A stretch of DNA of 43,004 nucleotides from Acidimicrobiales bacterium (GTDB lineage: Bacteria > Actinomycetota > Acidimicrobiia > Acidimicrobiales > CADCSY01): assembly GCA_036275955.1 (NCBI GenBank), contig DASUCO010000070.1:1-43004 (forward strand). The letters are read 5' to 3'. The notes below the pieces were generated by a model, which saw nothing but the letters and a program-made list of their open reading frames with translations, was not told where the DNA came from and made no database searches. This document shows positions 3,621 through 23,600 of this stretch, one piece after another; positions within the stretch are counted from its first letter, which is position 1, and every line of letters begins with the position of its first letter. A program made the translations under genes and the position numbers.

Positions 3621-6600
3621 CGCTCGAAGTCGATCTTCGACAGCACCGCGGCGTCGAACGCCGGGCCGAAGTCCAGGGTGCGGGCGAGGTCGCTGTCGAC
3701 GAACGGGATGGCGAGGTTGAAGCCGCCGGTGGCGGTGTAGTTCTCGAGCCAGTCGTTGCGCAGCCGCAGCAGCTTCTGGTGGAAGTCCTCGACCGTAAGG
3801 CTGGTGAAGCCGGCGAGGTTGGACAGGTTCGTCGGGACGAAGCTCGGCGTCACCGTGCCGCGGCCGCGGCCGACGAAGAAGTCGCCCGTGATGCTGATGC
3901 TCGCCGCCGCACCCTGGTTCACGTCCTCGCCCGCGAGCCAGGCATAGAGCGGCAGCGTCATGTTGAGGTTGCTCACCGAGTTGGCGAGCGGGTCGTACAC
4001 CAGGCTGTACGCCGAGCCGAAGCCGACATCGACGTGCATGTCCATCGTGATCGAGCCCTTGAGCCCGCGCGGATGGCCCGCCGTCGCCTCGAGGTCGCCG
4101 ATCATCACCGGGATGACGAGGTTGCTGGCGCTCGCCACGACGTCGAACTCGAGCTGGTCGAGGTCCCACTCGGCTTTCTGGTGGCCGGCGGCCCAGTCGA
4201 CCTCGAAGGCGAAGTCGAACTCGGTGTCGAAATCGGCGTTGATCCTGACGAACGCCGGGCCGACGCCCTGCACCGGCTCGGACAGCCCGACCGGCACCTG
4301 CTTCACGTAGTCGGCGTCGCCCTCGAAGTCGAGGCCGAAGCCGGTGATCCTGCCGCCGCGCTTGATGAACGTGAGGTCGACGCGGTCGCCGACGCCCTCG
4401 CCGGCGAGCACGGTCGGGAACCAGTTCGCCTCCAGGTAGTCGAGGAAGCCGGCGATGCTCGCGCTGCCCTCGCCGTCGAGGTAGGCGGTGATGTGCGTGC
4501 CGAGGTCGAGGTACGCCGAGATGCCGAACAGCTCGTCGAGCGTGACGTCGGTCGCCGCGATCTTGTCGGCGGTGACCGCCGGGTTGGCGGCGAGGAAGTC
4601 CGCTTTGAGTCCGTCGATCTCGGCGGCGAGCGCGGCGAGCTGCTGCTCGAGCGGCTCGGCCTCGACGCCGGAGACCTGCTCGAGGTCGAGTACGCCGAGG
4701 CGCGTCATCACCTTGCGCACATCGGCGCGGCCGGCCGAGACGCTGCTGCCGCCCTGCGTCTTGAACTCGGCGCGCCCGGTGGCGCTCATGCTGCCGGTGA
4801 GGCTGGTGGTGACGCCCGAGAAGTCGAGGGTCGAGCCGCCGCCGGCGTCGGTGATGCGGTCCTGTCCCCAGGCGCTGCCGAAGGCGTAGAAGTCGCCGCC
4901 GGTGCCGCCGTCGAGCCGGTCGTTGCCGCCGCCGCCGGAGAGCACGTCGTTGCCCGCGCCGGCGATCAGCGAGTCGCCGCCCGCGCCGCCGCTGAGCTGG
5001 TCGTTGCCCGCGCCGGTGGTAAGGCGGTCGTTGCCGGCGCCGCCCACCGCGACGATGCGCTGGGTCGAGCGGCTGCCGTCCAGCGTATCGACGCCGTCGC
5101 CGCCGTCGAACTGGGTCTCGCCCGAAGAGCCGCCGGTGCCGGTGATGAGCGTGTCGTCGCCCGCCTCGCCGAGGAACTCTATGGTGATGCCGCTCGTCGC
5201 CGAGGCGTCGATCTTGTCGTTGCCGATGCCGCCGTGCGCGACCACCTTGGTCACGCCGGAATAGGTGTGGCTCCAGCCGCCCTTCGCCGGGTCGCCGAAG
5301 GTGACCGTGAGCGCGCCGCTACCGCCGGAAAGGACGAAGGTCTCGGGTCCGTCCTCCACGGTGAACGTCATGCCGGCGGTGACGCCGCCGCCGAAGAGCG
5401 GATTGCGCTGCTCGGCGCGGTCGCCCATGTTGAGGGTCAACGTGCCGCCGGCCTGCTCGCCGAGCTTCAGCAGGTCGGCCTGCGGCGCGTTGTACTCCCA
5501 GTCGAAGAGGTTGAACCTGAGCAGGTTCATGTACCAGGCGTGGCCGTGGTCGTCCTCGTCGAAGCCGACCGCGTCGGCGAATACGAAGATCTCGGCGTCT
5601 AGCGAGGCGTCGATGTTGACGAGATTGAGCAGGCCGCCGAGCGAGCCGAGGTCGAAGAACGGTTCGTCGTCGGGCAGCGTGGCCTCGTCATCCTGCTCGG
5701 GCGGCGGCGCGGTGACGTCCTCGGTCTCGTGCTGCGCCATCAGCAGCAGCTCCGAGACGCGGATCTTGCCGTCGTGGACCAGGTCCATGAGGTCGAAGTC
5801 CGCGTTGAAGACGAGCTGCCCGCCCACGCCCACTTCGGCGGCCAGGGCGTCGAACGACGCCTCGATGCCGAGCGACATCTCGACGCCGAACTCCGGCGCG
5901 TCGACGCCGGAGTTCTGCACGCCGTTGTCGCTCACGTAGAAGCCGTCGAGCGCGTCCCAGTAGTTGTCCGACGCCATGGCCTTGCGGATGCCGAAGGTGT
6001 CGTAGCCGAACGTGAGATCGGCGAAGGCCTTGAAATTGCCGACGGCCGTCACGTCGAAGCTGAGGAACGAGATGACCGGCACCGGAATGCTGAAGAGCAG
6101 CTGGCTCAGCCGGACATCCACCTCGAAGAGCGGCATCTCGTAGGTGAAGAGGTCCGCCTCGCCGCCCGAGAGCAGCTGCGCCCAGTTCTGCAAGTCGAAG
6201 AGGTGCAGCTCGAAGCCATCGCGCGGCGTGGCGCTGGCGCGCAGCTCGCGGCCGCTGCGCTCGCCGCGCCCTTTGTCGCGCAGCTCCTCGAGGTGCGAGG
6301 CGAGCTGCGTCGGCGCGCCGCCGCTCGCGCCGCTCGCCGTGGCGCGCCCCGTCTGGGCATTGAACGACAGGTTGCCGAGCGGAATGTACGTCTCGCCCGG
6401 CTCGTCGACGCTCGCCTGGATGGCGAGCACCGTGTCGACCAGCTCGAGCATGTTCTGCGCGGCGTAGACGAAGTTCCAGTTGTTGTCGCGCCCGCTGGCG
6501 AGGTCGATGATGTCCATCAGGTCGACCGTGCCGTTGTCGTTCACGTCGAACGCGTCGTGCACCAGCTGCATGACGTCGTCGTCGGGGCCCGGGACCGGGA

Positions 6601-9600
6601 TGATCTCGAAGGTGAGCGCATCGATCACCGGCTCGATCGGGCGCAGCGTGTCGCGGATCTGGGCGGCTATCGGCAGCAGGAAGTCCGCCACCGCGGAGCC
6701 GAGCTCGATGCGCAGGTTGTTGAGGCCGATCGACGGCGCGGTCACCGCTTCGCCGAGCTCCCAGTGCCAGTCGAGGTCGAGGTCGCCCTTGAGCTTCGGC
6801 AGCAGGCTCGCCTGCCTCTCGCCAGCCGCGGTGTCGATCTCGAGGCCCTTGTTGACCTCGAGCGTGAGGCCGAGGGTCACGTCGGCGTCCACTGTCAGGT
6901 CCAGGTCGAAGGCGCTGCCCGGCCGCGACAGCGCCTCGTCGAGCGTCAGGCGGCGGTCGGCGCCGCCATCGAGGTCGAGCGTAAGCGCGCCTTCCAGCGT
7001 GCTGGGTGTGCCGCCATCGTCGGCGGTGACGTCGAAGAAGAGGAAACTGCCGCTCGCGCTGAACGGGTCGGGCACGTCGGGCGTGGAGGTGTCACCGTCG
7101 AGGAAGGCGCTGATCTCGACGCCGATCTCCGCCTCGTCTTTGGTGGCGACGTAGAAGCCGTCGCTCAGGCTGATGCCGAAGCCGAGGTCGAAGTACCACT
7201 CCATGACCGCCGACAGGCCGCCGTCCACGTCCAGGCCGAAGCCGGGCAGGTCGAGGTCGAGCGGGATGTCGAAGCCTTCGCTGAAGATATTGCCGCCGAG
7301 CTTGAGATCGAACTGCAGCGAGTCGGCGTCGACCGGCACGGTCTGCCCCGGCTCCCAGGCCTGGATGACGGTGCCGTTTTCGCGCCGCCACTTGATGCCG
7401 ATGTCGCTGATGTCGACCGCGCCGTCGCCGTTCGAATCGCGCAGGATGCCCAGCCCGCCCGACCCGCTGCGCAGCACGCCCCACAGCACGTCGCGGATCG
7501 CCTCGATCGGCGTGGTCTCGTCGAAGTACTGCTGCAGGTCCTCGAGCAGGCCGGTGCGGATGCCGCTGACGAAGTCGCCCATCGCGGCGAGGTCGTCGCC
7601 CACGAGCGGCAGGTCGGCCGCCCAGCCGGAATCGAGCACGTCGCTCACCGTGCCGAGCAGGAAGTCGATGCCTTCCAGCATGAAGGACGGATCGTTCAGC
7701 ATGGCGAGCAGCGAGAACTCGCCGAACAAACGCTCGAAGGTGCCGACGACGTCCGGGAAGTCGATCACCACCGGATCGGCGCCGCTCGACGTCGCGCCGT
7801 TCACGAAGAAGTTGTAGAGCTCCTCGAGCCCGTTGGCGCCGAACGCCGGGTTGGTCGAGACGCTGAAGCTGCCGAGTGGCAGCGTGGCGTCGCCGTTGAC
7901 GATGGAGAGCGGCAGGTCGACGCTCATGCGACCCTGCAGGTCGAACTCGAGCGCGTCGCCGATCGGGTCGCCGACCTCGTAATCCTCGGTGAAGGCGACC
8001 GTGAAGGTCGCCATGTCGGAGGTGGTGGCGGCGTTGCCGTCGCCGTCGAAGGCGACGCGGCCGCCGGTCACGCCGGCCGAGATCGGGCCGATGTCGAAGG
8101 CGAGCGAGAGGTCGGTGCCGAGCACCTGCGCGCCGACCTGCAGGCGCGTGCCCTTGCCCGTGGTCTCGTCGTAGCGGCGCAGCTTCGCCACCGGCGCGCC
8201 GCCGGTGGCGAGCGGCAGGAGGCTCAGCTCGACCGCGGCGTCGAGGGTGACCTGGGCGCCGAGGTGCAGGTTGCCCTGCGTGTCGAGCGCGAGGCGGTCG
8301 CCGAGGATGTCGAGGTCGCCGAGCGCCGAGAGGTCCAGGCCGTCCATGCCGGCGAGCGAGGCGAGGTCGAAGCTGAACTGCACGTCCTCGGAGAACGAGC
8401 GAGTCCACTCGAAATCGACCACCAGCGCCATCGTCTCGAGGTCGAAGTCGATCTCGAGGGCCGAGGCCGGCAGGCCGAGCGCCTCCTCGATCGCGAGCTC
8501 GACCGCGCCGAGCGCATCGGGCGCCACCTGCCCCGCCCGCTCGACGCGCGCGGCGAAGTCGTCGATGAAGTCGACCGCGTCGGCGAGCGAGCGGTTGATG
8601 ACCGGGATCGGCTGGTTGAAGTACTCGTTGCCCTCGAGCGAGTCGGTGACGAACTCGACGATGCCCTGCAGGCCCGACACCACCAGGGAGTAGCCGACCA
8701 TCACCTCGTAGTCGACGGCAGCGCCGGCCTCGAACATCCGCACGGTGATGAGCGGGTCGGTCCCCTCCAGCGTGAAGTCGCCGGCGCTGAGGCTCATCAA
8801 CTCCAGGGTCGCCTCGGACTCTTCCAGCGTGGCGACGAAGCTGCCGTCGATGACGAACTCGTCGCCGATCTGCAGCCCGCCGGAGATCATGAGCTTCAGG
8901 TACTCGCCGGCCGCGATCACTTTCGCCGGATCGGCGTCGAGCGGCGTCACGGTCACCGCCTCGCCGGTGGAATTCAGCTCGAAGTCGACGGTGGCGCTCG
9001 TCAGGGAGAGCGGCAGGCTGCCGAAGTCGATGCCGTCCGGCACGGTGAGCGTGCCGAAGCCGGCGATGCCCTCGTCGGCGATGCGCAGCGTGCCGCCGCC
9101 CTGCAGCGTCATCAGCGTCGAGCCGCCGACCGCGATGGGCACGGAGATCGAGTCGGCGTCCAGCGTGATGACCGAGTGGCCGCTTTCGTCGACCACGCGC
9201 AGCCCGACATCCTGGCCGGTCACCGTCTGGCCGAGCACCTCGAGCCCAAGCTGGCCCGCGGTGACCTGGAAATACGGGTTCGGACCGGCGAGCGTGACCG
9301 ACTCCTGCGTGCCGTCGCCGTCGCTGTCGATGCTGAGCACGACGTCCGGCCCGGACATCGTGCGCACCTCGATGGCGAGGTCCGTTGCCGAGACGCTCAC
9401 CTGCGGCAGGCCGGTCAGCGCGACGCTGTCGAAGCTTGCCTTGCCGGCGACGCCGTCTTCGTTGATCACCAGCGTCCCGGCGCCGCCGCTCGCCGTCAGC
9501 CGCGTGCCGCCGGCGCTCAACGTCGTGGACAGCCCGGAACCGGTGAGGCGCAGCTCGGCCGCCGTCGCCTCGAGGGCGAGGTTGCCGCCGAGCGACTGGC

Positions 9601-12600
9601 CGAGCACATTGATCGCCACGTCCTCGCCCGAAAGGCGCAGGTACGGGCCCGCCTGGACGTCGACGCTGATCGTGCCGGTGCCGACCGTGGCCTCGAGATC
9701 GACCGCCGCGCTCGTGCTGTTCAGCTCGACGCCGAAGCGCCCTTCGAGGGAGAAATCGGCGCCCGCGGCGGCCGCGACCGTCGCGGAAAGGCTGCCGGCG
9801 ATGCCGTCGGTGGTGATGAGGAAGGCCCCGGAAGCATTCGTCACTTCGACCAGCGCCTCGCCGCCCGCCGAGAGGGTCATGCCGGCGTCGTACGCGCTGA
9901 CCACCACGACGGGGCTGCCGCCCGCCGTCGAAGCCTCGAGCGAGAAGTTGCCGGAGAGCGCCTGCGCCGAGCCGCCGGCAGGCGTATAGGTGAGGGTCGC
10001 CTCCTCCGCCGCAACGCGCACGTACGGCCCGGCCGCGAGATCCAGGGTCTGCGGCCCGCTGCCGAGGTCGATGGTCTCGTGCTGGTGCGTGCCGGTGGTG
10101 TTCACCGCCACGGTGAAGTCGCCGGTGAAGCTCACCGAGCTGTGCGTCACCGCGATGTCGGCGCTCGCCTGTCCGAAGAAGCCGCTGCTGGTAAAGACGA
10201 AGGTGCCATCGCCGTTTTCCACCGAAACGGTCGGCACGCCGAAGTCGATCGCGACGCCGTCGGCCTGCAGCGTGACGATCGGGTCTTCGTCCTCGCGCAC
10301 GTCGGCGCGCAACGCGAAGGCGCCGCGCAGAGTGCGGCCGCTCGCGAACGTGAGGCCGCTGCTTCCGGTGCTGACGTTCACCTGGGCGAAGCGCGTCCCG
10401 GCGCGCGTGTCGAAGGCGAGCGCGGCATTCGCCACAACGAGCGCCATGTCGGCGATCTCGGGCCCCTGGGCCAGCGTGACGTCGAACCCGCCCCACAGCC
10501 CTTCCGCGGCGATGTTGAGCTCGCCGGCGCCCGTGAACTCGGCCACCCGCGCGGCGCCGGCGCGCAGGGTGTAGACGAGATCGGCCACCGAGAGGTGCAC
10601 CGTCGTGGCGTCGCCGGAATTCACCTGCAGGGTAAAGACGCCGTCGAGCTCCTGCTCGAGGGCAGTGAGCTGGCCGTCGACGATCAGGCGGTAGAAGTCC
10701 TGCCCGCCGGTCCTGACCAGGTTCACCGGCGTGCCGTTGATCAACGTGACGTCCTCGTCCATGGTGTTGAACTCGACCGTCACCGTCGTGCCGTCGAGCT
10801 CGACCCCATCGAGGTCGGGGCCGTCCTCCAGCGTCATGGACATGCTGGCGGCGACGCCCGTGGACTTGATCTGCAGTGCCCCGCTGCCGGAAAGTCGCGC
10901 GAAGCGCCAGCCGTCGGAGGTGAGGTCGAGGCGCGTGATGCCGGCGTTGACCGAGATGACGGTGTCGTCGCCGTCGACCACCAGCAGGTCGAACGTGCCC
11001 TCGAGCTCCTGGTCGAACGCGGTCAGGCTGCCCGCGATCGTTACGCCGAACACGTTCGCCACGCCGGTGGTATCGACGTGCAGCGTGGCCGTGCCCTCGA
11101 TGTCGAGCCCCTCGATGTCCGGGCCGGCGAGGAGATCGATGCTGAACGAGCCGGCGATGCCGTCCGCCGTGTAGACGAAGTCGCCCGTGCCGTTGCCGAA
11201 ATGGGCCACCCGGGTGCCGCCGGCGGTGAGCTCGAGCGTGTCGACTTCGACGTGGATCAGCGTCTGCGCGCTCTGGGCCGAGCCGCTGCGCTGGAGCACG
11301 AACCCGCCCTCGAGCGTCTGCCCCATCGCCACGAGAGTGCCGTCCACCGCGACGGTGATGTCGGGCGCGTCGCCGCTGAACACGTCTTCCGTGCTGACGG
11401 CGACGTGTCCGTCGCCGTGGAGCTCGAAGTCGGCGAAGCCGGTGATGTCGGCGGCGAGATCCAGCGAAGCGCTGAATGTGCCTTCCGAGGTGGCGGTGAA
11501 GACGCCGCTCACCGGCGTGGTGCGATCGACGACCGCGGTCAGAACGCTTTCGGTGATCTGCCCGGTGGAGGACAGGCCGACCTTTGCATTCAGGGCCATG
11601 GTGCCGTTCTGCAGCGCGACGTTGGCGCCGATCTCGTCGAACGAGATATCGAAGCCGAGGCCCGACACGCCGACGTCGACCCCGGCGTCGAAATCGTGCA
11701 CCTGCAGGAAGAATTGCCCGCCGCCATCGAGGCCGAACGACAGGTCGAGCGCGACGGTGGCACGGAAGTCGACCTCCGCGCCGGTGAAGTTGATGCCGAG
11801 GAGGGGCGCGCTGCCCGGATCGAGCTCGACGCTGTCCTCGCGCGTGGCGGTGAGCGCGACGCGATAGTTGGGCGAGACCAGGTCGTACGTGCCGATCACG
11901 CTCAGGACGTCGATCGTGAAGCCGCCGACCTCCGTGCCGTCGAGGCCCTCGAGGAACTTGGTGATGCGCGTCTGCACTTCCAGCACCGCCGCGTTCGGAT
12001 CGGGAATCGTGGCGTCGATGGAGTCGGTCAGCGTCGACTGGATGGCGCCGTCGATGTCGGCCAGCTGACCGATGCTCGCCTGCTCGGTCGTCGTGGTGCT
12101 TGCGGTGGTGAGGAGCTCGGCGCTGCCGCCCTCGTCTGCGGCGAAGAAGGAATCGAGCTCGGCGGCAGCGAAGGCCATCAGGCCCATCGCTTCCGGATCC
12201 TCCTCGGGCAGCTCGTCGCCCGCCGGCGCCTTCACGAAGGGCAGCTTGATCGCGTATTGGACTGCCTCGCCGACGGCCTCGAACACGGCCTTCACCAGGC
12301 CGCCGCCGCCCTTCAGCTCCGTGGCGGTGCTGGTCGTGAGCTGGGAGGCCTGCACCACGTCGAGGTAGTAGCCATCCGCCGCCACGCGCGGGACGAAGGC
12401 CAGGTTGGTGCCGATCGCGGTGCCGAGGAAGTACTGGAAATTCCCGCTGATGGAAGTCGAGTCGATGATCTTGAAGCTGTCGCCGACGGTCGGCACGAAG
12501 CCGTTCCACGACACGATCTGCAGCCGCCCGCCGAGCTGGACCGGGCCGCTGACCACGAACTGGTCGTGCGATCCGCTGGTGTTGCCCGGGCTCGTGCCGC

Positions 12601-13852
12601 CGATCTCGATCACCACCGTCTGCTCGGGCGCGACGGTGAGCGAGGTCAGGTTCTCGATGTGCGGGCTGCGGCCGCCCGGGTTGAGGGCCAGCGCGTTGGT
12701 GATGTCGACCGGGCCGGCATAGGCGAGCGCCTCGATCTGCGTCTCGACCGCGTCGGGCAGCGCCTCGAAGAGGTCGAAGCCGGCGAAGCCGTTCGCCTGC
12801 AGCCGCGCTTCGAGCGTATCGGCGGAGATGATGAAGTCGTCCCACGAGCCGCCGCCGGTCGGCGTGTTCGGGAAGTCGACGACGATGAGGCTCGACTGCA
12901 GCCCGGCCGCGTCGAGCGCCGCCACGTCGGTCGGGCCGTCGCCAGGCTCCGGCAGGATGAGGATCGCCTTCCAGGTGTGCGCCGGCGCGGTGACGATGAT
13001 GCCGTCGCCGCGGTCGAAGGTGACCGCGGTGCCGCTGTCGTCGAGGAGCGTGCCGTAGCCGCCGGCGTAGATGTAGAGCTCGTTATTACGCTCCAGGACC
13101 AGTTCGCGCGAGAAGTCCTCCAGCACCTTCCACGCCCCGCGGTTCAGGTTCGAGTGCTGCGGGACGATGTTGGTCATGTACGAGACCGCGATCGAATCGT
13201 CCTCGGTGGCGCGCCGGTCGTCGGCCGGCGCCAGGTGGCCGCGGTCGTAGGTGCTGCCGTACGAATCGCCCGGGTTGGCGTCCAGCCCGGCGCCCGTGAG
13301 GATCGGGTCGGCGCGGAAGCTCTTGCGGGCGAAGTTGCCGCCGAGCCAGCTGCTGTTCAGCTGCCAGGCGGCCCAGTTCGGGTTCTTGGTCGAGTCGTTG
13401 TACGAGATGTCGTACTGGTCGCGCTCGATGAGGAAGTTGTTCGGGCTGAGGCCCGCGTCGGTCGGATTGCCGAACAGCAGGTGATCGGCGCCGGCGACGG
13501 CGGCGAGCGCGGTGAAGCCGAAGTCGAGGATTTCTTCGTCACCGGCGGGATCGCCGGCGAGCGGCGCGTAGGCGTCGAGCTCGACGAACCCCGTGTCCGA
13601 CGGCGTGGCGGCCGAGCTTTCTGCGTGGCTGCGCAGGACATCGGCGATGACTGCGGTACTGGCGCTCGGCTCGTCGACGAGCGCGGCGACCGGTGTCTCG
13701 GTGAGGTCGTCGGAGGCGGGCGCCAGGTCGGCCGACAGCAGCAGCCGCGGCTCGAGGCTTTCGAAGCGCATCTTGCGCTTGAAAACGTGGCGCGCGGCGC
13801 GCCCCGGGCGGGCGAAGAGCCGCCGGAAATAGCTTTCGGTTGGGGCGTTCAC
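1..13852 (-). CDS. Giant secreted repeat protein, 3'-partial (at least 4,590 codons in window). Contains a LEPR-XLL N-terminal motif, an Endonuclease_NS domain, beta-rich repeats, an internal RTX block and a C-terminal helical-hairpin repeat array. Not listed in the supplied ORF track.
   Basis: The minus frame (codon top positions = 1 mod 3) is open from TAG 14155..14153 down to the left edge. The track reports only start-to-stop ORFs, so this one is invisible. Hand translation gives GTG13852[29 protein letters not shown]13771[21 protein letters not shown]... By hand count, GC3 rises from about 68% upstream of 13852 to about 86% or more downstream. Recognisable protein motifs occur along the whole length. 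The start is ambiguous (GTG 13852 or ATG 13771). The plus-strand TAG at 5600..5602 reads CTA (Leu) on this strand. Confidence 0.85.
   Translation of the reverse strand, partial: [4617 protein letters not shown]
4880..5245 (-). repeat. RTX / hemolysin-type Ca2+-binding nonapeptide repeats (GGxGxDxUx), internal position
   Basis: Direct translation gives [11 protein letters not shown]...[14 protein letters not shown]...[12 protein letters not shown]...[67 protein letters not shown]. Confidence 0.85.
9000..11900 (-). repeat. Degenerate beta-rich repeat region of the left megaprotein (family unknown)
   Basis: Motifs recur in hand translation: G(Q)xLxGxFxLxxxxxG ([71 protein letters not shown]), DGIAG(S/K/F) and AGPY(V/L)R(V/L). 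Spot checks at 9541..9660 confirmed the translation. Confidence 0.4.
12722..13480 (-). other. DNA/RNA non-specific endonuclease domain (Endonuclease_NS, Serratia nuclease/NucA/EndoG family)
   Basis: Translated motifs appear in the family order: [26 protein letters not shown], then YDRGHLAP (His codon 13237..13235), then [23 protein letters not shown] (Asn codon 13171..13169), then HTWKAILIL, then VVDFPNTP...[28 protein letters not shown]. These parallel the Serratia nuclease blocks DRGHQAP / SNITPQ..LNQGAWARLE / YWKVIF / FDQNTP...VTVDEIEKRTG. Confidence 0.8.
13727..13756 (-). other. LEPR-XLL N-terminal signature ([10 protein letters not shown])
   Basis: Hand translation gives [19 protein letters not shown], preceded by a basic stretch. 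This matches the named LEPR-x-LL motif found at the N-termini of large repetitive proteobacterial exoproteins. Confidence 0.8.
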
Positions 13853-14186
13853 GGCCTCGGCGCCGCGCGCGCGAGCGCACGCGATCCGACGTGGACCGCC
13901 GACGTGTTCTGCAAGCAGCTGCGCAGGTGCACCTGCGTCATCCTCCCAATTTCGATCGAGGATGAAGAAGCGCTGCCGAAGGATGCCTAGGCCGAGGGCA
14001 AGCAGGCGCACGCGCGCCGCGCGTGGCCCGGTTTCCTCGGAGTTTGCGGTCCTCCCCGCTCCCCACCAAGATTCCGCGGAAAGGATAGTCCTCTGACATT
14101 TCTTTTGAAAGTCACGCGTTCGCCTAGCCGACCGGCGGCAACGCGATACGGGCTATCCAATCCACTCACCATCTAATCAAGCACTT

Positions 14187-14203
14187 GCCGCCGGGACGGC
14201 GGC
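14187..14203 (-). terminator. Candidate stem-loop terminator downstream of the DUF3467 gene
   Basis: GCCGCCG-GGA-CGGCGGC (7-bp GC stem, 3-nt loop) lies 42 nt after the TAG stop. On the transcribed strand it is followed by AAGUGCUUGAUUAG, which is only weakly U-rich. Confidence 0.3.
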
Positions 14204-14244
14204 GGGGCGATGCTTGACTTTTTCGAATCGCCGGAGTCCCGGCG

Positions 14245-14571
14245 CTACTTCTTCCCCGCGCCGCCGCTGGTCTGCAGCTCGACGTTGAGCGCGCCGAAGC
14301 GGTTCTCGTACTCCTTCACCACGCCGTTCAGCAGCAGGCTCAGCCGCTTCGCCGCGAACGGGCTGATGATGATGCGGTCGGTGAGCTGGATCGTCACTTC
14401 CTTCTGGCCGCGGTTCCACGCCTGGTTGACGCCGAACAGCAGGACCACCTCCTCACGCGTGCTGCTGACGTTGCACACGTTCGCGTAGGCGCTCTTCATG
14501 TTGGAGTCGTCCCACTTGATCTTGGTCCCCTCGATGGAGGTTTCTGCCGGCGCTTCAGCCTTGGTAGCCAT
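14245..14571 (-). CDS. DUF3467 family small protein (108 aa)
   Basis: This uses the internal ATG (14571) of track ORF 14245..14634. It is preceded by AACGGGAGAGAGC-ATG, a GGGAGAG Shine-Dalgarno sequence. The product is MATKAEAPAETSIEGTKIKWDDSNMKSAYANVCNVSSTREEVVLLFGVNQ...RIIISPFAAKRLSLLLNGVVKEYENRFGAL. It matches the DUF3467 pattern Y(A/S)N....S..EF.LDF......R(I/V).(M/L)SP..AKRL...L...(I/V)..YE..FG.(I/L). Confidence 0.8.
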   Translation of the reverse strand: MATKAEAPAETSIEGTKIKWDDSNMKSAYANVCNVSSTREEVVLLFGVNQAWNRGQKEVTIQLTDRIIISPFAAKRLSLLLNGVVKEYENRFGALNVELQTSGGAGKK

Positions 14572-14602
14572 GCTCTCTCCCGTTGATTGTCTGGTACTCG
14601 AG

Positions 14603-14627
14603 GCGCCGCGCTCCCTACGCGCGGCGC
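14603..14627 (-). terminator. Perfect 9-bp GC stem-loop between the giant gene stop and the DUF3467 start (terminator, attenuator or processing hairpin)
   Basis: GCGCCGCGC-TCCCTAC-GCGCGGCGC (plus-strand reading) lies 41 nt downstream of TGA 14670..14668 and 31 nt upstream of ATG 14571. There is no U-tract. Confidence 0.3.
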
Positions 14628-14667
14628 GCGGCACGCACTTTAACCCAAGGCGCCCGCCACAAGGTCG

Positions 14668-17600
14668 TCATTCGTCGGTTTCCAGGAAGTCGACGAGCGG
14701 CCCGGAGCTTTTCTGGCGGGCCGCCCCCTGGAGGGCTTGACCCAATGGACCAAAGTCCTTAAAGGACTGCATCCACTCGATCACCCGCGCCGGCCCGGCG
14801 GCCGCGGGCTTCGCGGCATCGCGCGGCTTTTCGGACAACCGGTCTTTGTAGGCGTCGTGCCAGTCGACCAGGCCGGAGAGCCGTTCGCGCAGCTCGAACA
14901 GCGCGCTCGGCACGCCGCAGTTCCATTCGAGCGTCGACGATTCGACCAGCACGTCGGCGCCGCCGCCGCCGCGCAGCTGGTCGCGACCGTCGCCGCCGAC
15001 GAGGAGGTCGTCCGCCGCCCCGCCGCGCAGGTCGTCGTTGCCGGCGCCGCCGAAGAGCTGGAGGTGCGCCACCACCACGCCCGAGCCGTCGATCTTGTCG
15101 TTGCCCGCGCCGGCGTCGACCAGCGTGGACATGGTGAGGCCGTCCAGCTCCACGTGATCGTTGCCGCCCAGCGCGGCGACGTCCAGCGACGTGATGCCGG
15201 AGTAGTAGCGGGTCTCGCCGTTCACCGTGACGCGCACGATGCCGCCCTCGTCCTCGACGATCTCGATCTTGTCGTTGCGCTCGGTGCCGCGCACTTCCAG
15301 CGTGCGCTCCGATTGCGCCACTTCAAGCTGCCAGGTCTGCTCGGCTGCCCCGCCGTTGCCGTCCGACACCCGCAGCGCAAAGCTGTAAATCCCCGGCGCC
15401 GAAGGCACCCAGTGCAGCTCGCCCGTGCCCGCGTCGATCACCGCGCCCGCCGGCCCTTGCAGCAGGCTATAGGTGAGCGTGTCGCCATCGACATCGACTG
15501 CGTCCGCGTCGTACCGGTAGGGCGCCGCGGCCGGCGCAGCGAGGCCGCCGATGCGCACGCGCAGCTCGTCGTGCTTGTGCTTGCCGTCGTCCCACGCAAG
15601 CATCAGCGCGCCGCTCGCGTCGAATTGCGCGCGCACGCGATCGGCGCCGTCGGCATTCGCCTCCGCGATGGAGAACGTAGCCGCGTCCTTCTTCTTGTCG
15701 CCCTTCGCATAGAACGCGTACAGCGCGCCCGCCTCCAGCGTGAGGGTGCGGCTGGTGCCGTCGCGGTCCGCCTTGCCGAACGCCACCTGCGAGCGCGCGA
15801 GCGCCGCCGCGGCGTACGCCGGGTCGCCGGCGTCGATGCCGCTCACCGTGCCCCAGGTGTCGTCTACGCGATAGACACCGAATTCCGCCGGCGCGTCCTT
15901 CTCGCGCCCGAGGAGCGCGAAGCTCACCGTGCCGCCCGCCGCGCGGAACACGCTGTCCAGGTTGGCGCTCGAGCGCGGCGGATCGATGACGAGCGACGTG
16001 AGCGGCAGGGAGGTGAACTGCGGCCCGTCGTTCACACCAGTGATGGTGACCGTCACCGTGGCGCTCGACGTGGCGCCCGCCGAGTCCCGCATCGTGTACG
16101 TGAACGTGTCGAACGCGGTCTCGCCCACGGCGAGATGCTGGAAGTCGTCGCCGACTTCGTAGCGCACGCCGCCGCCGTCCGCGTCGATCGTCACCGTTCC
16201 GACAGTTCCGGCGAGATCGAGCGCCACCACGCTACGCGTGTCGCCGTCGTCTGCGTCGGTGTCGTTCGCCAGCACGTCGATGTGCACGCCGTGGTCTTCG
16301 TCCGTGCCGGCGACGTCGGCCTGGGCCTCGGGTGCATCGTTCACCGCACTCACGTCAATCGCCACCACATCGGTGTCGCTCAGCGCCGTCCCCGAACCGA
16401 ATCCGCCCAGGTCGTCGGTCGTGATCGTCAGGCTTGCCGCGCCGTTGAAGTTCAGGCCCGGCATGTACGTAAGACCATTGAGCGCGGCGTTGATCCCGGC
16501 GAGCGTGCCGCTGAAGGTCATCGCCGCGTCACCGCTGCCGTCGCCGCTCGTGAACGTCAGGCCGGCTATGGATCCAAGCGTGAGCTGTCCGTTGCCCGCC
16601 GCCAGCGTCACCTGGACAACCTCATCGCCCAGGACAGCGTTGTCGGCGTCGTCCACGTCCGCCACCGCGATCGCGTTGCCGTTGGCCGCAGAGAACACAA
16701 GCGCCGAGTCTTCGTTGGTGAACTGGGCGCCCGGCACGGTGTTCACCGGCGCGTCGTTAACAGGACCCACGGTGACCATCACCACGTCGGTATCCGTGAG
16801 CGGCGTGCCGAGGCCGAAGTTGCCCAGGTCGTTGGTCGTGATCGTCAGGCCCGCCGCGCCGTTGAAGTTCAGGCCCGGCGTGTAGGTCAGGCCGTTCAAC
16901 GCGGCGTTCACCCCGGCTAGCGTGCCGGTGAAGGTCATCGCGGCGTCGTCGCTGCCGTCGCCGCTCGTGAACGTCAGGCCGGCTATGGATCCAAGCGTGA
17001 GCTGTCCATCGCCGGCCGCGAGCGCCACCTGCACGACCTCGTCGCCCAGGACAGCGTTGTCGGCGTCGTCCACGTCCGCCACCGCGATCGCGTTGCCGTT
17101 GGCCGCAGAGAACACAAGCGCCGAGTCTTCGTTGGTGAACTGGGCGCCCGGCATGGTGTTCACCGGCGCGTCGTTCACCGGGAGCACGGTGATGGACACG
17201 CTTGCGTTGGCGCTCAGCGTGCCATCGCTGACCCGGTACTCGAAGCTGTCGATGCCGTTGAAGTTTGCGTGCGGCGCGTAGACGAACGAGCCGTCCGCAT
17301 GGAGCGCGAGCGTGCCGTTCGCAGGCCCGCTGACGAGAATCGCGCTGAGCGTGTTGGCCGGCAGGTCCGGGTCGCTGTCGTTGCCGAGCACGCCGCTTAC
17401 CGGCACGCTCAGCGTGCCGTCCTCGTCGAGGCTGTAGCTGTCGTTCTCCGCCAGCGGCGCCAGGTTGACCTCGTTGACCGTGACGGTGAGGGTCTCCTCG
17501 TCCCAGAGGTTGGGCGCACCGTCGTCCGTCACACGCACGGTGAAGGCATAGGCGCCGGGCCCTTGCGCCTCGGTCGGCGTCCAGGCGAACGCACCGGCTG

Positions 17601-20600
17601 CGGTAATCGTGGCGCCCTCGGGGGCACCCACCAGGCTGAACGTGAGACCGTTGGCGGGGACGTCCGGGTCGGTCGCCGCCGCGGTGAACGTCAGGGTTTC
17701 GAGCTCGTTCACCGTCTGGTCGCCGATCGCCGCCAGCACCGGCGCGGCGTTCACCTCGTTCACCGTGACGGTGATCGTCTCCTCGTCGAACAGGCTCGGG
17801 CTGCCGTGGTCGGTGATGCGCACGCGGAAGCTGTATTCGCCGGCCCCCTGCACCTCGGTCGGCGTCCAGGTGAAGACCCCGCTCGCGGCATCGATCTGCG
17901 CGCCTTCCGGCGAGCCGAACAGGCTGAAGGTGCGGCCGGTGTCCGGCAGGTCGGCGTCGGTGGCGAGCGCGGTAAAGGTGAGGGTCTCGAGCTCGTCGAT
18001 CGTGAAATCGCCGATGGCGGCGAGCACGGGAGCCACGTTCACTTCGTTGACCGTTACGGTAATCGTCTCTTCGTCGAACAGGCTCGGCGTGGCGTCGTCG
18101 CTCACCCGGATCGTGAACGTGTAGTCGGCGGGACCCTGGGCTTCGGCCGGCGTCCAGGCGAACCAGCCGGTCTCCGGGTCGATGGATGCGCCCGCCGGCG
18201 CGTCGATCAGGCTGAAGATGAAACCATCGGCCGGCGCGTCGAGGTCACCAGCGCTCACCTCGATCTCGAGCGTGTCGAGCTCGTTGATGGTGCGGTTGCC
18301 GACGAAGCTCATCTGCGGCGCGTCGTTGGTCCCATGGACGGTGACGCTGACGGTGGCGCTGCTCGTCTCCCCGGACGGATCGGCGATCGTGTAGCTGAAC
18401 CAGTCGGTGAGGGTCGCGCCGGCGGCCAGGTCCTGGAAGAGGCCGCGCACGTCGTACTCGATCCTGCCGTCCACCACCCTTAAGAAGGCGCCGGCCGACG
18501 AGGATTCCCCGACGCTGACGACGAGCGCATCGTCGTCCGGGTCGCTGTCGTTGGCGAGCACGTCGATCAGCACCGCGCCGCCGTCCTCGAGCGCGCTCGC
18601 CGCGTCGTCGGCCGCCAGCGGCGCGCTGTTGATGGCGTCGTCGAAGCGCACGTTGTCGATGGAGACGAACGAGCCGTGCCCGCCGAAGCCGAGCAGGTCG
18701 AAGTACAGCGTCGCCGCGCGCCCGGCCAGGCCGTCGAGGTCGATCGAGACGCTGATCGGCTCGGCAAGCGTCGCCGGCAGGACGTCGCCAGCCAGGCCGT
18801 GCAGCTTGACGCCGGCGCCGCGGCGGATCGTGCCGTCGGCCTGCACGTTGAAATAGCTGTCGGTCTGCGAAAGCGCCACGGTGCCCGTGAGCGGCGCGAG
18901 CGTCGCCGTGTCGAGCAGCGCGACCTCGAAGGCATCGCCGGGTCCGGCTCCGGGCGCGTCGAAATTTGCGCCGACGATGTCGAAGAGCAGATAACGGTGC
19001 CCGGGCAGGGTGAAGTCCTGCGTGATGCCGGAGTTGAGGCGCTCGTCTTCCGCGAGCGTGGCTGCGCCGCCGGCGAAGGAGACGCTGCCGCGCGCGTTCC
19101 AGCCGCTGCCGCTGTCGAATCCGCCGTCGAGGATGTGCTCGGCGTGCAGGTACGCAGTGCCAGTCCCGCCCGTGCCGGCGACGAAGTCCGCGGCCGTGGG
19201 CAGACGGCGCACGCCGGTGGCGAGGCTCTCGTGCATGACGCTGCCAGTGTCGTTCGCGTGCCGGGCGCCAAGCACATGGCCGTACTCGTGCAGGAGCACG
19301 GTCAGCACGTCCATGCCATCGAAGGCTTCGCTCGTCGCCGGCGTGGCGTCGGCATACCAGCCGTGCCCGGCGCCATCGTCGTCGAGCGTGATGATGGCCG
19401 AGCCGCCCGCCATCGACGTGTAGGCGAGCAGATCCCCGCCGAGGTCCGCCACCCGGACCTCTGCCGTCGCCATGCGCGAAGCGTCACCACCCAGAGCGGT
19501 CCAGGCGTCACGGGCGTGGGCGGCAAGAGTCGCAAGAGCGCCGAGCGAGCCATCGCCCGTTGACGTCCCCGTACCCGCGGCGAGCGGCGTGATCGATGCG
19601 GTACCCGTGCCGCCATCGTCATCGGTGATCGTGACCGTCACGCCGGTGGCGCCCTCGTGTACCACCACGGAGCCGGCATCGCTCAGAACGATGCCGTCGC
19701 TGAATGTCCAATCATAGCGGTGCGTGTCGAGCACGCCGGGATCGACGACGCTCGCGCTGAAGGTGCTGCCCTGCACGGCCACGCTCGCCGACGGCGCCAC
19801 GTTGAGCACCGTGAAGGTCGCCTCCTGCGCCGGGCCGACCTGCGACGGCTGCGGCGCGAGCACATACAGCAGGCGAACCTTGGCGGTGTACACGTCCGGC
19901 TGCGGCGTCGGACGGTCGTCGCGATAGACATGGCTCAGGGTCGTGCCGGCGTTGATCGGCAGCAGCTCGATCGGGATGCCGCTCTCGACCGTGCCGTCGC
20001 CCCAGTCGACCTCGAGCGCGTAGGCGTCGACCAGCAGCCCGACGCCGCGCACCGTGACCTCGATGCTCGCCGTGTCGCCTTCGTTCAGCGCGGCGCCGGA
20101 GAAGGCGAGCTCGATCGGATCGATGATGATGGTTTCGCTCACCTCGATGCGCGCGCTGTCGCTTGCCGTGCCGCCGTCGTCGTCCGTCGCCTCGAACGTC
20201 GCCGTGTAGCTTCCCGCCGCCAGGCTGAAGCCGGCGGCCGCAGTCGAGCGGCTCGCCACGATCGCGCCGGCCTCGTTGGTGATGGTCCACTGCACGTCGT
20301 GGGTGTCGAACGCCCCGGGGTCGTCGAACTGGCCGGTAAGGGTGAACACCTGGCCCGCCCGCACCGCGCGGTCGGGGCCCGCGTCCACGTCGGGCGCGAC
20401 GTTGTTCACCGTGACCGTATCGCTCGCGTCGACGAAGTCCTCGTCGTCATCGGTGACGCGGACGCTGACCCCGTACGGATCGGCCGGCGTGCCGCTCGGA
20501 TCGTCGTCCGCGTAGACATGCGAGAGCGGCACGGTCTGCGCCGCGCCGCCGGTGAGGAATACCGTCTCGACCGTGCCGTCGCCCCAGTCGACCTCGAGCG

Positions 20601-23600
20601 TCAGCTCGTCGGACTCGCCGGCGTCGGACACCTCGGCGAACAGCTCGACGAGCTCGCCTTCGTCGACGCTCGTGCTGGCGAAGTCGAGGAAGAGCTCGGG
20701 CGCGGCGTTCGCCACGGCCACGGTGAGCGCTTCCTCGACTTCGCCGGTGTCGTCGTCGACCAGCGTGACGGTAACGTCGTAGACGTCGTCCTCGCCCGGC
20801 GCTTCGTCGTCGGCATAGACGTGCTCGAGGACGAAGCTCATGTCCTCATGCGTGAGGAACACGGTCTCGGGCCCGCTGCCGTCGCCCCAGTCGACCAGCA
20901 GCTCGAAGGTGTCGGTGCCCGGATCGGCGAAGAAGCCCGCCAGCACCACCGTGTCGCCCTCGATCGCATCCGGCGTGAGCACCAGGCCGGAGAATTCCGG
21001 GGCGACGTTGCGCACGGTCAGCGTGGCCTCGCCCTGGGCGGCCCCGGTGTCGTCGTCGGTGAGCTTCACTGCTATGGTGAAGCTGTCCTCCGGCGTGCCG
21101 GTGTCGGGGTCGTCGTCGGCGTACGTGTGCGAGACGGAGAAGCTGCCGTTGCCGTCGGCAAACGGCCCGAGGTCGATGAGCTCGGTTTCGCCGTTGCCCC
21201 AGTCGACCTCGAGCTCGAAGGTGTCCTCGAACCCCTTGTCGGTGAACGTGCCGCTCAGCGTCACCGTGCCGCCTTCGTCGATCTCCGTGGCGCTGAGCTG
21301 CAGCTCGCCGAGCTCGGGCGCCTCGTTGTGCACGACCGGGTGGAGGATGACCTCGTCGACGCCGAGATCGTCGTCCTGCACGGTGATGCGCAGGTCCATG
21401 ATGTCGGCCGGCGTGCCGGTCTGCGGATCGTCGTCGACGTACTTGTGGCGCAGCTCGAAGGTGCCTTCCTGCGAGCCGAGCGGACCCTGGTTCTCCAGCG
21501 TATCGAGGGTGCCGTCGCCCCAGTCGATCGTGATGGTGAAGGTGTCGTCGGGGCTGACGTCTCTGTATCGCCCGGTGAGCACCACCTCCTCGCCCTCGAT
21601 GAGGTCGCTCGGATCGACGAGCACCTCGAGGATCTCCGGCGCGACGTTGCGCACATCGAACCGGGCTTCGCCGGCGCCGGCGTTGGCGCCGCTCACCTTC
21701 ACCGTCTTGGTGTCGGACTCGGTGTTGCTCGGGCTGTCGTCGGTGAAGCGCCGCGTGAGCGAGGCGTGCGTGCCGCCGGCGGCGACGGTCACCTTCTGCA
21801 CCACGCCGTCGCCCCAGTCGACGTCGAGCACGGTCTCGACCGAGGAGTCGAAGGGCTTGAAGTCGATCAGCAGCGTGGCCAGCTCGCGCTCGTCGACGTC
21901 GTCGATGTCGAGCTGGATGCGCGGCGCGAAGCGGATGTCGTCGAGGAAGTAGACCTGGCTCAGCGTCGAGGCCGGATCGTCGAGCCCGGGCAGCAGGTCC
22001 TCGGGGCTGAACGAGACCGCGATGGTGTCCTCGAGGTGCACGTGCTTGAACTCGAGCATCGCCACCTGGCCGCGGTATTCCTCCGGCACCTCGACGAAGT
22101 AGCGGTTCTTCTCCCAGAAGCCGGGCGTGAGCTGGACGAGCACCGGGTCGGTGGCCGCGGCCGGCGCGCCTTCGCCGATCGTGGTGGGCAGGAAGCGCAC
22201 CTCGATCGCGGCGTCCTTCGTCAGCATCACCGGCGAGAAGATCTCGAACGAGAGCACCTCGGCGTCCGCCGGCACGTAGAGCCGGTTGTGGCGGATGGTG
22301 TCGAGGTCGACGACCTGGTCGAGCAGGTCCTCGAAGAACCCTTCCATGCCTTCGGGGATGCTGGCGCCCATCACGTCCTTCAGCACCTGGCCGGCGCCCA
22401 TGAGGAGCGCCATGTCGCCCGGCTCGCCGAAGACCTTCTCCAGCAGCTTCTCGATGCCGCTGCCGATGCTCTCCTTGACGCCCTCGATGCCTTCGTCGGT
22501 CTTCAGCGCCTCCTCGAGCGGCGTCCCCTGGATGCCCATCTCGACCAGCTTGCCGACGAGCTCCTCGAGCTTCTCGTACGCCTTGTTCGACTGCTCTACG
22601 CGCTCCTTGTTGGGCGAGTCCTCGCCCCAGTTCTCCTCGTACCAGCGCTTGTAGCCGTCGGAGCTCGAGTCGTCCGGCGGGCGCGGCAGGCCGAAGGCGT
22701 CGTGCTTCAGCTTGTTCGAGGCGAACTTGACCGCCTTCTCGCCGACGAAGTCCCAGATCTTCTCGGCGAACGGCTTGAGGAACAGGTTGCGCCAGTCGGT
22801 CTCGATGCTGAACAGCCCGGCGATGTCGAAGTGCTCGCCGAACGCGTTGATATGGAAGCCCTCGCCGCCGTGGAACGACCAGCCGGGCAGCTCGTACGAC
22901 GCCGGGAAGCGGCCCTTCTCCTCGTCGTCGCCGAAGAGGTGCGTGAGCAGCGACTGCCGTCCGCCGTGCTCGAAGCCGCCGTTGAACACGCTCGCCACCA
23001 CCTCGGCGCCCTTGGTGACCTCGGTGTTGTCCTCGGCCGCCGGGTCGACGCCCTCGAACGCCTCGTCCGGGCGGTCCTCGTCGCCGCCGCCGGTCGCGCT
23101 GTAGTACCAGCCGGCGGTGATGCCCTCCCAGATGGCGCCTTCGAGCTTCCAGGCGTCTTCCATGTCCGCCAGCTCGGGAGACAGCGGCAGGCTCGTATAC
23201 CAGGGCTCGGCGTTGAAGCGGTAGGTCGGCAGCCCGACCGCCCGCGCCATGAGCCCTTCGTCGGTGATGCGGCGGAAGATCGGGTTGTCGTCGAACTCGA
23301 GGATGTCGAGGTCTACGGTGCCGGCGTACCACTGCCAGACGCGGCTGTGCGGGCCGCCGAGGCCGAAGTCCTTCACGGTCTCGAGGCCGAGCGCGTCGGC
23401 GAGGAAGTCGAGCCCCGAGGGCAGGGTGAAGCCCAGCCGGTAGTCGTCGCGCTCGAAGCCGGCCGAGCCGTCGAGCTTGAGGTTGATGTCCGCGCCCTCG
23501 ATCGCCACGCCGTTGGGCGTCAGGGTGGTCGAATCCATCGGCGCGAGCGTCTGGTAGTAGTTGTCGGCGAAGCCGATGTTCGACCAGACCTTGACGTCGG

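Follow-up and report, generated by a model that had tools for sequence, protein, structure and literature searches.

The window analysed here is one entire contig of 43,004 bp (DASUCO010000070.1) from a metagenome-assembled genome (MAG) of an Acidimicrobiales bacterium, and its minus strand encodes a giant protein, named giant1 here, in which a complete NucA-type DNA/RNA non-specific endonuclease domain stands close behind an N-terminal LEPR-XLL motif. Because the window has a GC content of 69%, long open frames occur on both strands; those in other frames, such as 5729..13990 on the plus strand, were dismissed as high-GC artefacts. Just three open reading frames (ORFs) look like genuine genes, all of them on the minus strand: giant1, a small DUF3467 gene and a second giant gene, giant2. 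The contig ends fall inside both giant genes, and the farther flanks lie outside the window. The giant1 frame is open from 13999 to 2, and its product reaches at least 4,590 residues from an ATG at 13771 or at least 4,617 residues from a GTG at 13852, the start chosen by the gene callers in the orthologous contigs L001 and L002. The features of giant1 from its start to just behind the nuclease, with residues counted from the ATG, are:

2..13852, minus strand: giant1 gene, with its 3′ end missing at the contig edge
13772..13852, minus strand: possible 27-codon N-terminal extension, rich in basic residues, ahead of the LEPR motif
13703..13768, minus strand: LEPR-XLL N-terminal motif, residues 2–23 (NF012209)
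13490..13702, minus strand: acidic low-complexity linker, residues 24–94 (71 residues), from the LEPR motif to the nuclease
12731..13489, minus strand: NucA-type DNA/RNA non-specific endonuclease domain, residues 95–347 (PF01223, NucA match and structure model)
13235..13246, minus strand: DRGH motif, D176 R177 G178 H179
13169..13171, minus strand: Asn201 of T-N-I-V-P-Q, the equivalent of Serratia N110
13142..13144, minus strand: Asn210, the equivalent of the Mg2+-ligand Asn (Serratia N119, NucA N155)
13118..13120, minus strand: Glu218, the equivalent of Serratia E127 and NucA E163
12341..12658, minus strand: beta-rich module following the nuclease, residues 372–477 (no Pfam match)

An original prediction, made from the sequence letters, had placed an intact nuclease domain at 12722..13480 (giant1 residues 98–350), and profile analysis supports it: PF01223 matches residues 111–340 with an E-value of 6.6e-37 and a score of 127.7 bits (cutoff 23), and the match spans positions 15–222 of the 223 in the profile. 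Among all Protein Data Bank (PDB) sequences the closest solved structure is NucA (1zm8/2o3b; E 2.4e-43 over residues 95–347), and Serratia nuclease, EXOG and EndoG match with E-values of 1e-14 to 1e-11. The nuclease is a complete PF01223 domain, and the match lies far past chance. The beta-beta-alpha-Me signature, which had been described as complete, is present in full, with DRGH, TN201IVPQ, N208LN210RGAW214 and LE218D all found. In the HMMER alignment the general base H179 corresponds to Serratia H89 and NucA H124, N201 to Serratia N110 and NucA N146, N210 to Serratia N119 and NucA N155, and E218 to Serratia E127 and NucA E163, and the alignment to NucA is ungapped across the whole span from DRGH through the Asn to the Glu. 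The R, G and H of the motif, N210, W214 and E218 are invariant in two alignments of homologues (A1, with 45 sequences, and A5, with 7). The prediction had also remarked on a short His-to-Asn spacing of 22 residues, a count that ran to N201, which is not the metal ligand; the Mg2+ ligand of the PF01223 family is the Asn at Serratia N119/NucA N155 rather than N110, and from H179 to N210 the spacing is 31 residues, as in NucA. We therefore set aside the spacing as a structural novelty, since the count to Asn201 was measured against the distance to the metal ligand in the reference enzymes (30–31 residues), and nothing about the predicted active-site geometry is unusual.

An AlphaFold2 model of the nuclease built on 45 homologues (mean predicted local distance difference test score, pLDDT, 88.2; predicted template-modelling score, pTM, 0.89) contains the beta-beta-alpha-Me finger, formed by a strand at 85–89 that carries DRGH, a strand at 112–116 and a helix at 123–138 (fragment numbering; pLDDT 83–97), and superposes on NucA and Serratia nuclease. 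Foldseek places 2o3b_A (E 6e-26) and 1zm8 (E 3e-25) at the top, with template-modelling (TM) scores of 0.82 by query and 0.89–0.90 by target, followed by Serratia nuclease (TM 0.73–0.82), EndoG and EXOG. The proposed collinearity with Serratia nuclease, NucA and EndoG is thus borne out by the profile, the PDB alignments, the model and Foldseek alike. Compared by tblastn with the plasmid-borne gene for NucA of Anabaena/Nostoc sp. PCC 7120, the nuclease is 41% identical, and the two proteins are collinear from LLxGNP to the C-terminal block, with DRGH, the Mg-ligand Asn, the Trp and the Glu in the same register. NucA is a stand-alone secreted protein of ~274 residues with a dedicated inhibitor, NuiA; the window nuclease, by contrast, has three small insertions and no cysteine and is built, as one of several modules, into a protein at least 4,590 residues long (more than 9,000 in orthologues). 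Serratia nuclease and mitochondrial EndoG and EXOG belong to the same PF01223 family, whose beta-beta-alpha-Me fold the window nuclease is predicted to share, but they are more distant, with 21–26% identity in structural alignments. Serratia nuclease relies on disulfide bonds, unlike the cysteine-free domain of the window.

Relatives of giant1 carry the same arrangement. L001, a farmland contig in ENA, is 97% identical to the window at the DNA level, keeps the same DUF3467–giant1 junction and differs by one synonymous change within the first 407 codons; L002, a contig from the Joint Genome Institute (JGI), carries an orthologue with the same junction and a central body that is 97–99.5% identical. 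An exhaustive HMMER search through 1.84 billion representative proteins, with the contigs then looked up, revealed two more lineages, one represented by L003 and L005 (44% identity, 60% GC) and the other by L009 (44% identity over the body, 57% GC), both of which combine a LEPR-XLL motif, a NucA-like domain and the same body. Between giant1 and its L002 orthologue the ratio of non-synonymous to synonymous substitution rates (dN/dS) is 0.02–0.39 across all segments. Because the same junction recurs in independent assemblies and in three diverged lineages, and because selection on it is purifying, the fusion of nuclease and giant protein is genuine and maintained under purifying selection. The nuclease itself is 89.5% identical at the amino acid level to that of L002, with a dN/dS of 0.26. 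The linker at residues 24–94, which has no family match in a profile search, is the most diverged segment of giant1 (71.8% identity, dN/dS 0.39), and the 27-codon extension is free of indels from the GTG on and has a dN/dS of 0.13 at a synonymous divergence (dS) of 0.59, a coding-type pattern. A basic stretch of 40–50 residues likewise precedes the motif in cultured LEPR-XLL giants.

An artefact would explain the locus differently, either as an assembly chimera in which a short nuclease gene was fused with a giant reading frame or as a non-coding high-GC frame, and it could appeal to the many spurious long ORFs that high-GC DNA yields here and to the single interruption in each orthologous ORF (a stop in L002, a frameshift in L003/L005). 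The identical junction in NCBI, ENA and JGI assemblies and in three diverged lineages, a GC content at third codon positions (GC3) of 94.9% that is confined to the giant1 frame, and a dN/dS below 0.4 along the full length, the part after the L002 stop included, effectively refute this explanation and leave it a negligible probability. The interruption in L002 is an in-frame stop at 10476-10478 where the window has a Glu codon, and that of the other lineage is one frameshift at ~11250-11370 of L003 (~20540-20660 of L005) that is present in two independent assemblies (ENA and JGI). Homology and purifying selection persist past both sites, for which sequencing error, recent pseudogenisation and recoding are all conceivable causes. 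Read through, the orthologues reach at least 9,360 residues in L002 and ~11,970 residues in L003/L005.

The position of the nuclease varies among these lineages. The original prediction spoke of the domain as the head of the protein, a description that fits the window and not the whole family: in L003/L005 and L009 the nuclease sits inside the protein, around residues 360–620 and 940–1200, and in L005 and L009 acidic sequence and an additional copy of the beta-rich module come before it. The head position is therefore lineage-specific. The module, of ~100 residues, reads VVIEIGG...HDQFVVSG...LGGRLQIV...GFVP..GDSFKII in the window (residues 372–477), with a consensus across lineages of LVIEIGG…(Y/H)DQ..V.G…L.G.L.(I/L)…(F/Y)VP..G(D/E).F.I(I/L); it follows the nuclease in the window, L002, L005 and L009, and the extra copy in L005 and L009 stands before it. 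Divergence along the protein is mosaic. In a comparison of window 2..13771 (minus strand) with L002 3240-20475, the first ~1,650 residues are 72–93% identical with a dS of 0.26–0.60, against 97–99.5% identity and a dS of 0.10–0.24 for residues 1651–3000, a pattern that suggests recombination or faster N-terminal turnover. Two scans of GTDB species genomes returned no giant1 relatives, and the sole relative that carries a name is an incomplete protein in a Verrucomicrobiota MAG (49% identity).

The prediction was right that, in the window, the nuclease follows a LEPR-XLL motif close to the N-terminus of a giant protein: NF012209 matches residues 2–23 of an ORF of at least 4,590 residues. The motif reaches 32.5 bits where the cutoff is 17 (36.3 bits with the upstream extension), and the same motif stands at the N-terminus of the L005 and L009 orthologues and of cultured giants. 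Two further features lie in the part of giant1 that the window covers:

4802..5251, minus strand: sole RTX block of in-window giant1, residues 2841–2990 (PF00353)
2..3574, minus strand: degenerate-repeat region, residues ~3400–4590 (no Pfam match)

The RTX block scores 33.8–42.5 bits with PF00353 and contains six strict GGxGxD nonapeptides at residues 2847–2955. It lies far from the end of the protein, as at least 1,600 residues follow it in the window and more than 6,000 in L002. The phrase "giant RTX repeat protein" was an overstatement for a protein with one RTX block of ~150 residues in at least 4,590, the remainder of which, the nuclease apart, matches no Pfam family, and "LEPR-XLL giant protein" is the more fitting name for giant1. 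Its composition is acidic (D+E 15.3%, K+R 4.8%), with zero cysteines. Residues ~800–1700 are beta-rich in appearance, and the repeat motif (V/T)L.(E/D)L(V/I)..GL(L/V/I)...D(L/F) occurs 14 times between residues ~3400 and 4590; a BLAST self-comparison of giant1 found no internal repeats at E 1e-5.

Homologues of the nuclease recovered by a word-index search measure 226–585 residues and mostly 250–300, in agreement with the size expected of stand-alone enzymes, and the 25 matches listed for a tblastn search against plasmids are all stand-alone NucA genes. Large fusions are less rare than had been implied, as ~20 of the best 150 representatives are 1,000–2,300 residues long. Seven of the eight large proteins inspected combine the nuclease with cadherin-like, Ig-like, LTD, type IX secretion system (T9SS) sorting or RTX domains. 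P0217 (2,288 residues, with a T9SS sorting domain), P0124 and P0216 (LTD, cadherin and Big domains) and P0072 (RTX) resemble giant1 in setting a NucA-like nuclease among adhesin-type or secretion-related domains, and such multidomain PF01223 proteins differ from it in being four to five times smaller, in using a T9SS C-terminal domain or C-terminal RTX sorting, and in having neither a LEPR-XLL motif nor homology to the giant body. Judged by domain content, a nuclease within a predicted surface or secreted scaffold is a recurrent design, of which the present family is the size extreme with a different N-terminal motif. What is new is a NucA-type nuclease inside a LEPR-XLL protein of more than 9,000 residues; the nuclease family and the displayed-nuclease design are known. 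Three smaller homologues combine the domain in other ways: P0070 (959 residues) has a duplicated nuclease whose first copy is without the metal-ligand Asn region, P0072 (818 residues) joins a NucA-like domain to C-terminal RTX repeats, and P0073 (745 residues) joins one to a lipase-like GHSLGG module. All three may be nucleases secreted by a type I secretion system (T1SS).

The other two genes of the window lie upstream of giant1:

14245..14571, minus strand: DUF3467 gene, 108 residues, directly upstream of giant1 (PF11950, E 4.6e-23)
14668..43004, minus strand: giant2 gene, at least 9,442 residues, with a C-terminal RTX block

The contig carries no NuiA-like inhibitor gene, its sole non-giant gene being DUF3467, and no Imm36, SUKH or NTF2 immunity gene. 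DUF3467 has no sequence or profile match among all PDB chains, NuiA chains included, and it is absent beside the nuclease giant of L005, which speaks against an inhibitor role. A function as a NuiA-like inhibitor is unsupported, given the lack of PDB similarity and the occurrence of DUF3467 in loci whose checked giants have no nuclease, and so is one as a SecB-like chaperone, with an hhalign probability of 0.1% against an E. coli SecB sequence. An AlphaFold2 model of DUF3467 (pLDDT 49) is too poor for a fold search. The protein has 3,839 matches at E ≤ 1e-5 and, among the matches listed, is 77–96% identical to 119 other clusters, all metagenomic, a degree of conservation that also tells against an inhibitor.

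The inhibitor question bears on the main rival to a tethered extracellular enzyme, a reading in which giant1 would be an antagonistic effector and the nuclease its toxin payload, Tox-NucA-like, delivered into rival or prey cells to degrade the nucleic acids there. Nucleases of the NucA clade are established as toxin domains and are exported by many routes (Zhang et al. 2012, PMC3482391), and giant1 would share with the Tox-NucA polymorphic toxins the use of this clade as a module of large exported proteins. The N-terminal 1,650 residues, more divergent than the central body (72–93% against 97–99.5% identity), recall variable toxin ends; giant2 has RHS-repeat, peptidase-like and hydrolase-like motifs; and giant proteins have been tied to predation in the PVC group (bioRxiv 10.1101/2023.11.21.568195). 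Polymorphic toxin domains, however, are C-terminal, variable and paired with an adjacent immunity gene (PMC3482391), whereas the nuclease of giant1 is N-terminal or internal and conserved, with no Imm36, SUKH, NTF2 or NuiA-like gene on the contig. DUF3467, which has no match to solved structures, also occurs in loci where the adjacent giant is nuclease-less, and selection on the nuclease is purifying, not diversifying (dN/dS 0.26). Weighing these features by analogy with known toxins, we consider an antagonistic role unlikely.

DUF3467 also marks a larger set of linked genes. In L006–L008, L010, L012, L013 and one further contig, the recurring order near DUF3467 homologues is a giant gene, DUF3467, a GAF-domain membrane-fusion protein (GAF-MFP, ~623 residues), a PqqD/M50/HlyD protein (~712 residues) and a SecA-like ATPase, and the full module adds a second membrane-fusion protein and a TolC-like protein after the ATPase. 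The ATPase, of 628–664 residues, scores below all SecA cutoffs, matches about the first 475–606 of ~790 model positions and is named "prepilin peptidase" or "DEAD/DEAH box helicase" by the PGAP annotation. In L005, TolC-like, membrane-fusion, GAF membrane-fusion, M50-like and SecA-like genes precede the nuclease giant, and in L009 a SecA-like gene lies upstream of it. The giant that follows the module in L010 has a motif that is nearly the LEPR motif of the window and no nuclease in its first 918 residues. The window holds DUF3467 alone of the module, which occupies these positions elsewhere:

L005, 711-9535: module
L006, 8001-14247: module
L010, 238-6578: module
L014, 15283-23959: module
L015, 14320-21674: module
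L018, 9707-17504: module
L019, 10398-17488: module

At least eight metagenomic loci have the module, as do plasmids of cultured Methylosinus, Mesorhizobium, Pseudosulfitobacter and Pontibrevibacter, where the giants beside it measure 8,847–12,918 residues. DUF3467 is annotated in three of the four cultured loci, the exception being Pseudosulfitobacter; PGAP calls two of the cultured giants "LEPR-XLL domain-containing protein", and in the remaining pair the motif lies at residues 40–51. No ABC exporter was found in the orthologous and related loci, where the ATPase is SecA-like and membrane-fusion and TolC-like genes are present, and the window contig carries no exporter genes. The known LEPR-XLL giants (NF012209, "LEPR-8K"), among them Pseudosulfitobacter WP_114295156.1 (12,918 residues) and Pontibrevibacter WP_205793450.1 (10,603 residues), share with the giant1 family a basic stretch followed by the motif, a length of ~8,000–13,000 residues, linkage to DUF3467 and, in some, RTX-type repeats. 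They differ in the nuclease, with no DRGH in the two cultured giants checked, those of Methylosinus and Mesorhizobium, and a nuclease head is a trait of the present metagenomic family alone. The searchable literature contains no description of the module and only incidental mentions of LEPR-XLL, DUF3467 and SecA with M50/HlyD/PqqD; the sole in-context mention of LEPR-XLL there concerns a protein of ~8,000 residues of Vibrio sp. VB16 (PMC10868602).

Truncated SecA-like domains, comprising the SecA DEAD and preprotein-binding unit without the C-terminal scaffold and wing, have been described inside giant proteins of Omnitrophota and actinobacteria and proposed to export the giant itself (bioRxiv 10.1101/2023.11.21.568195). 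In the LEPR-XLL loci, by contrast, the SecA-like unit is a separate gene of the module, and the preprint reports no nuclease. We consider the module a candidate dedicated export system for LEPR-XLL giants. A more tentative extension is that LEPR-XLL could be the leader of an undescribed export pathway of six parts, which would thread giants N-terminus first and have the nuclease giant as one cargo. Its parts would be the truncated SecA-like protein as motor, the PqqD(RRE)-M50-HlyD protein for leader recognition or cleavage, the GAF-MFP, the second MFP, the TolC-like channel and DUF3467. Were threading N-terminus first, the nuclease head would be out of the cytoplasm before folding and would need no inhibitor, and the window, with a giant, DUF3467 and a LEPR-nuclease giant in succession, would be a fragment of such an export locus.

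By analogy with the N-terminal retention modules of RTX adhesins, the nuclease could instead stay inside the envelope, as a folded domain retained on the periplasmic side that would plug the outer-membrane channel, anchor the fibre there and perhaps degrade incoming nucleic acid. The nuclease of the window lineage does lie at the N-terminal end beside a probable sorting motif, and orthologous loci contain TolC-like and membrane-fusion genes. In L005 and L009, however, 340–900 residues that include a beta module precede the nuclease, which is consequently not terminal; no similarity to known retention modules was found; and the linked ATPase resembles SecA, not an ABC exporter. SecA in general points to threading from N- to C-terminus, as opposed to the C-terminus-first passage of T1SS substrates. 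By comparison with known retention systems, we regard a plug as decidedly unlikely.

Our preferred reading, which we hold to be reasonably probable, is that the domain is a Mg2+-dependent, sugar-non-specific nuclease module of a giant exported protein, tethered to it and acting on extracellular nucleic acid. Giant1 is most likely exported, to judge from its lack of cysteine, its acidity, its RTX block, the adhesin-type giant2, the TolC-like and MFP genes at L005 and the module beside cultured LEPR-XLL giants, and the multidomain PF01223 proteins with cadherin, LTD, Ig, RTX and T9SS domains offer a precedent for a displayed nuclease. The data establish the family of the domain, its intact active-site residues, its predicted fold, a conserved fusion under purifying selection and the linkage to neighbouring genes; that the domain cuts, that it acts outside the cell, how and in which direction it is exported and what it does for the cell are inferred. 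In the proposed mechanism His179 would activate the attacking water, and Asn210, via a hydrated Mg2+, would organise the metal site together with Glu218 as in NucA. DNA and RNA would be cut outside the cytoplasm by a domain that stays covalently attached to a fibre-like body of ~9,000–12,000 residues, and the activity would be held at the cell surface or in the matrix, where it could serve in scavenging phosphorus and nitrogen nutrients or in remodelling a matrix of extracellular DNA (eDNA). Export would probably follow neither the classical Sec route nor classical T1SS and may use the DUF3467/MFP/PqqD-M50-HlyD/SecA-like/TolC-like module instead; if it proceeds N-terminus first, the nuclease would exit early, which fits the missing inhibitor gene.

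Several observations weigh against a tethered, active extracellular nuclease. The N-terminus of giant1 has no recognisable Sec or Tat signal peptide and no hydrophobic core, and its C-terminus and flanking genes lie beyond the contig, with anchoring and export machinery unseen. The Arg equivalent to Serratia R57/NucA R93 is shifted by one position (A148-R149-K150), and the dN/dS of the nuclease, 0.26, is somewhat above the 0.02–0.18 of the central body. DRGH reads ARGH (Asp to Ala) in the L003/L005 lineage, and high activity may not be essential to the family. The physiological role, moreover, was picked among plausible options rather than derived from data. The NucA chain in 1zm8 has the same Asp-to-Ala change, and this D121A variant was reportedly chosen for its reduced activity. 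In the 44%-identical orthologue of L005 (12737-13555; P0069, residue ~1005), ARGH is accompanied by retained His, Asn and Glu residues and by one residue inserted ahead of G-x-W downstream of the metal-ligand Asn, and the nuclease of this lineage may, from its residues, have reduced activity.

Such changes could also be read as signs of a non-catalytic adhesion module, a domain that binds eDNA in a biofilm or soil matrix with little or no cutting: ARGH replaces DRGH in L003/L005, the Arg57/93 equivalent is displaced, and the host protein resembles an adhesin-type fibre. The D, R, G, H, N, W and E residues are nevertheless all kept in the window, L002 and L009, the His, Asn and Glu are kept even in L005, and the sequences bear no sign of inactivation, so that we judge a pure binding function very unlikely.

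Biochemically, little is new in the nuclease, which is a textbook member of its family. The scale and context are unusual, with a probably active nuclease set in a protein of ~9,000–12,000 residues whose family is known from metagenomes alone, and with no inhibitor gene on the contig. Provided that the domain works and is displayed, it would take to an extreme the principle of keeping a diffusible "public-good" enzyme attached to its producer, and would bear on eDNA turnover and phosphorus scavenging in soil. How a cell tolerates a nuclease head made many minutes before the protein is complete is a puzzle that points to the linked module. The export module is the more novel lead, although DUF3467 is its only part within the window; as the module is also found in cultured Alphaproteobacteria, the question of export is experimentally tractable.

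The intergenic DNA upstream of giant1 contains a 30-nt element, TCTTGGTGGGGAGCGGGGAGGACCGCAAAC, at 14042..14071 (minus strand), ~190 nt upstream of the giant1 start. The element is identical in the window, L001 and L002, and the surrounding intergenic DNA is poorly conserved and indel-rich. Neither an Rfam match nor a sigma-70-like promoter was found for it, and it may be a regulatory site. A scan of 13650..14750 gave no Rfam or promoter-like match, and the single terminator-like hairpin, at 14229..14244 (plus strand), is equalled in number by shuffled controls.

The neighbouring giant2 has CARDB, cadherin-like, Big_9, He_PIG, PKD, RHS-repeat and PPC domains, and its N-terminus is off the contig, since no stop occurs in the window before the first ATG. 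It also contains a matrixin-like HEYGH motif at nt ~19290 and an alpha/beta-hydrolase-like GHSRG motif at nt ~23880, the latter a motif only, with no Pfam match, and is thus a second giant with embedded enzyme-like modules at the same locus. After its RTX repeats, giant2 ends in a C-terminal tail that is common to the giants ending before DUF3467 in the window, L002 and L006–L008, with the motif (I/V).W(K/M).SF(K/R).(F/L)G...(S/G)G(S/P)(F/L)(D/V)FLT/E.D*. The motif does not occur in the Methylosinus or Mesorhizobium giants, and its positions include:

window, 14668..14800, minus strand: C-terminal tail motif of giant2
L002, ~2250-2395: C-terminal tail motif
L006, ~7790-7943: C-terminal tail motif

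The bodies of the giants that share this tail are non-orthologous.

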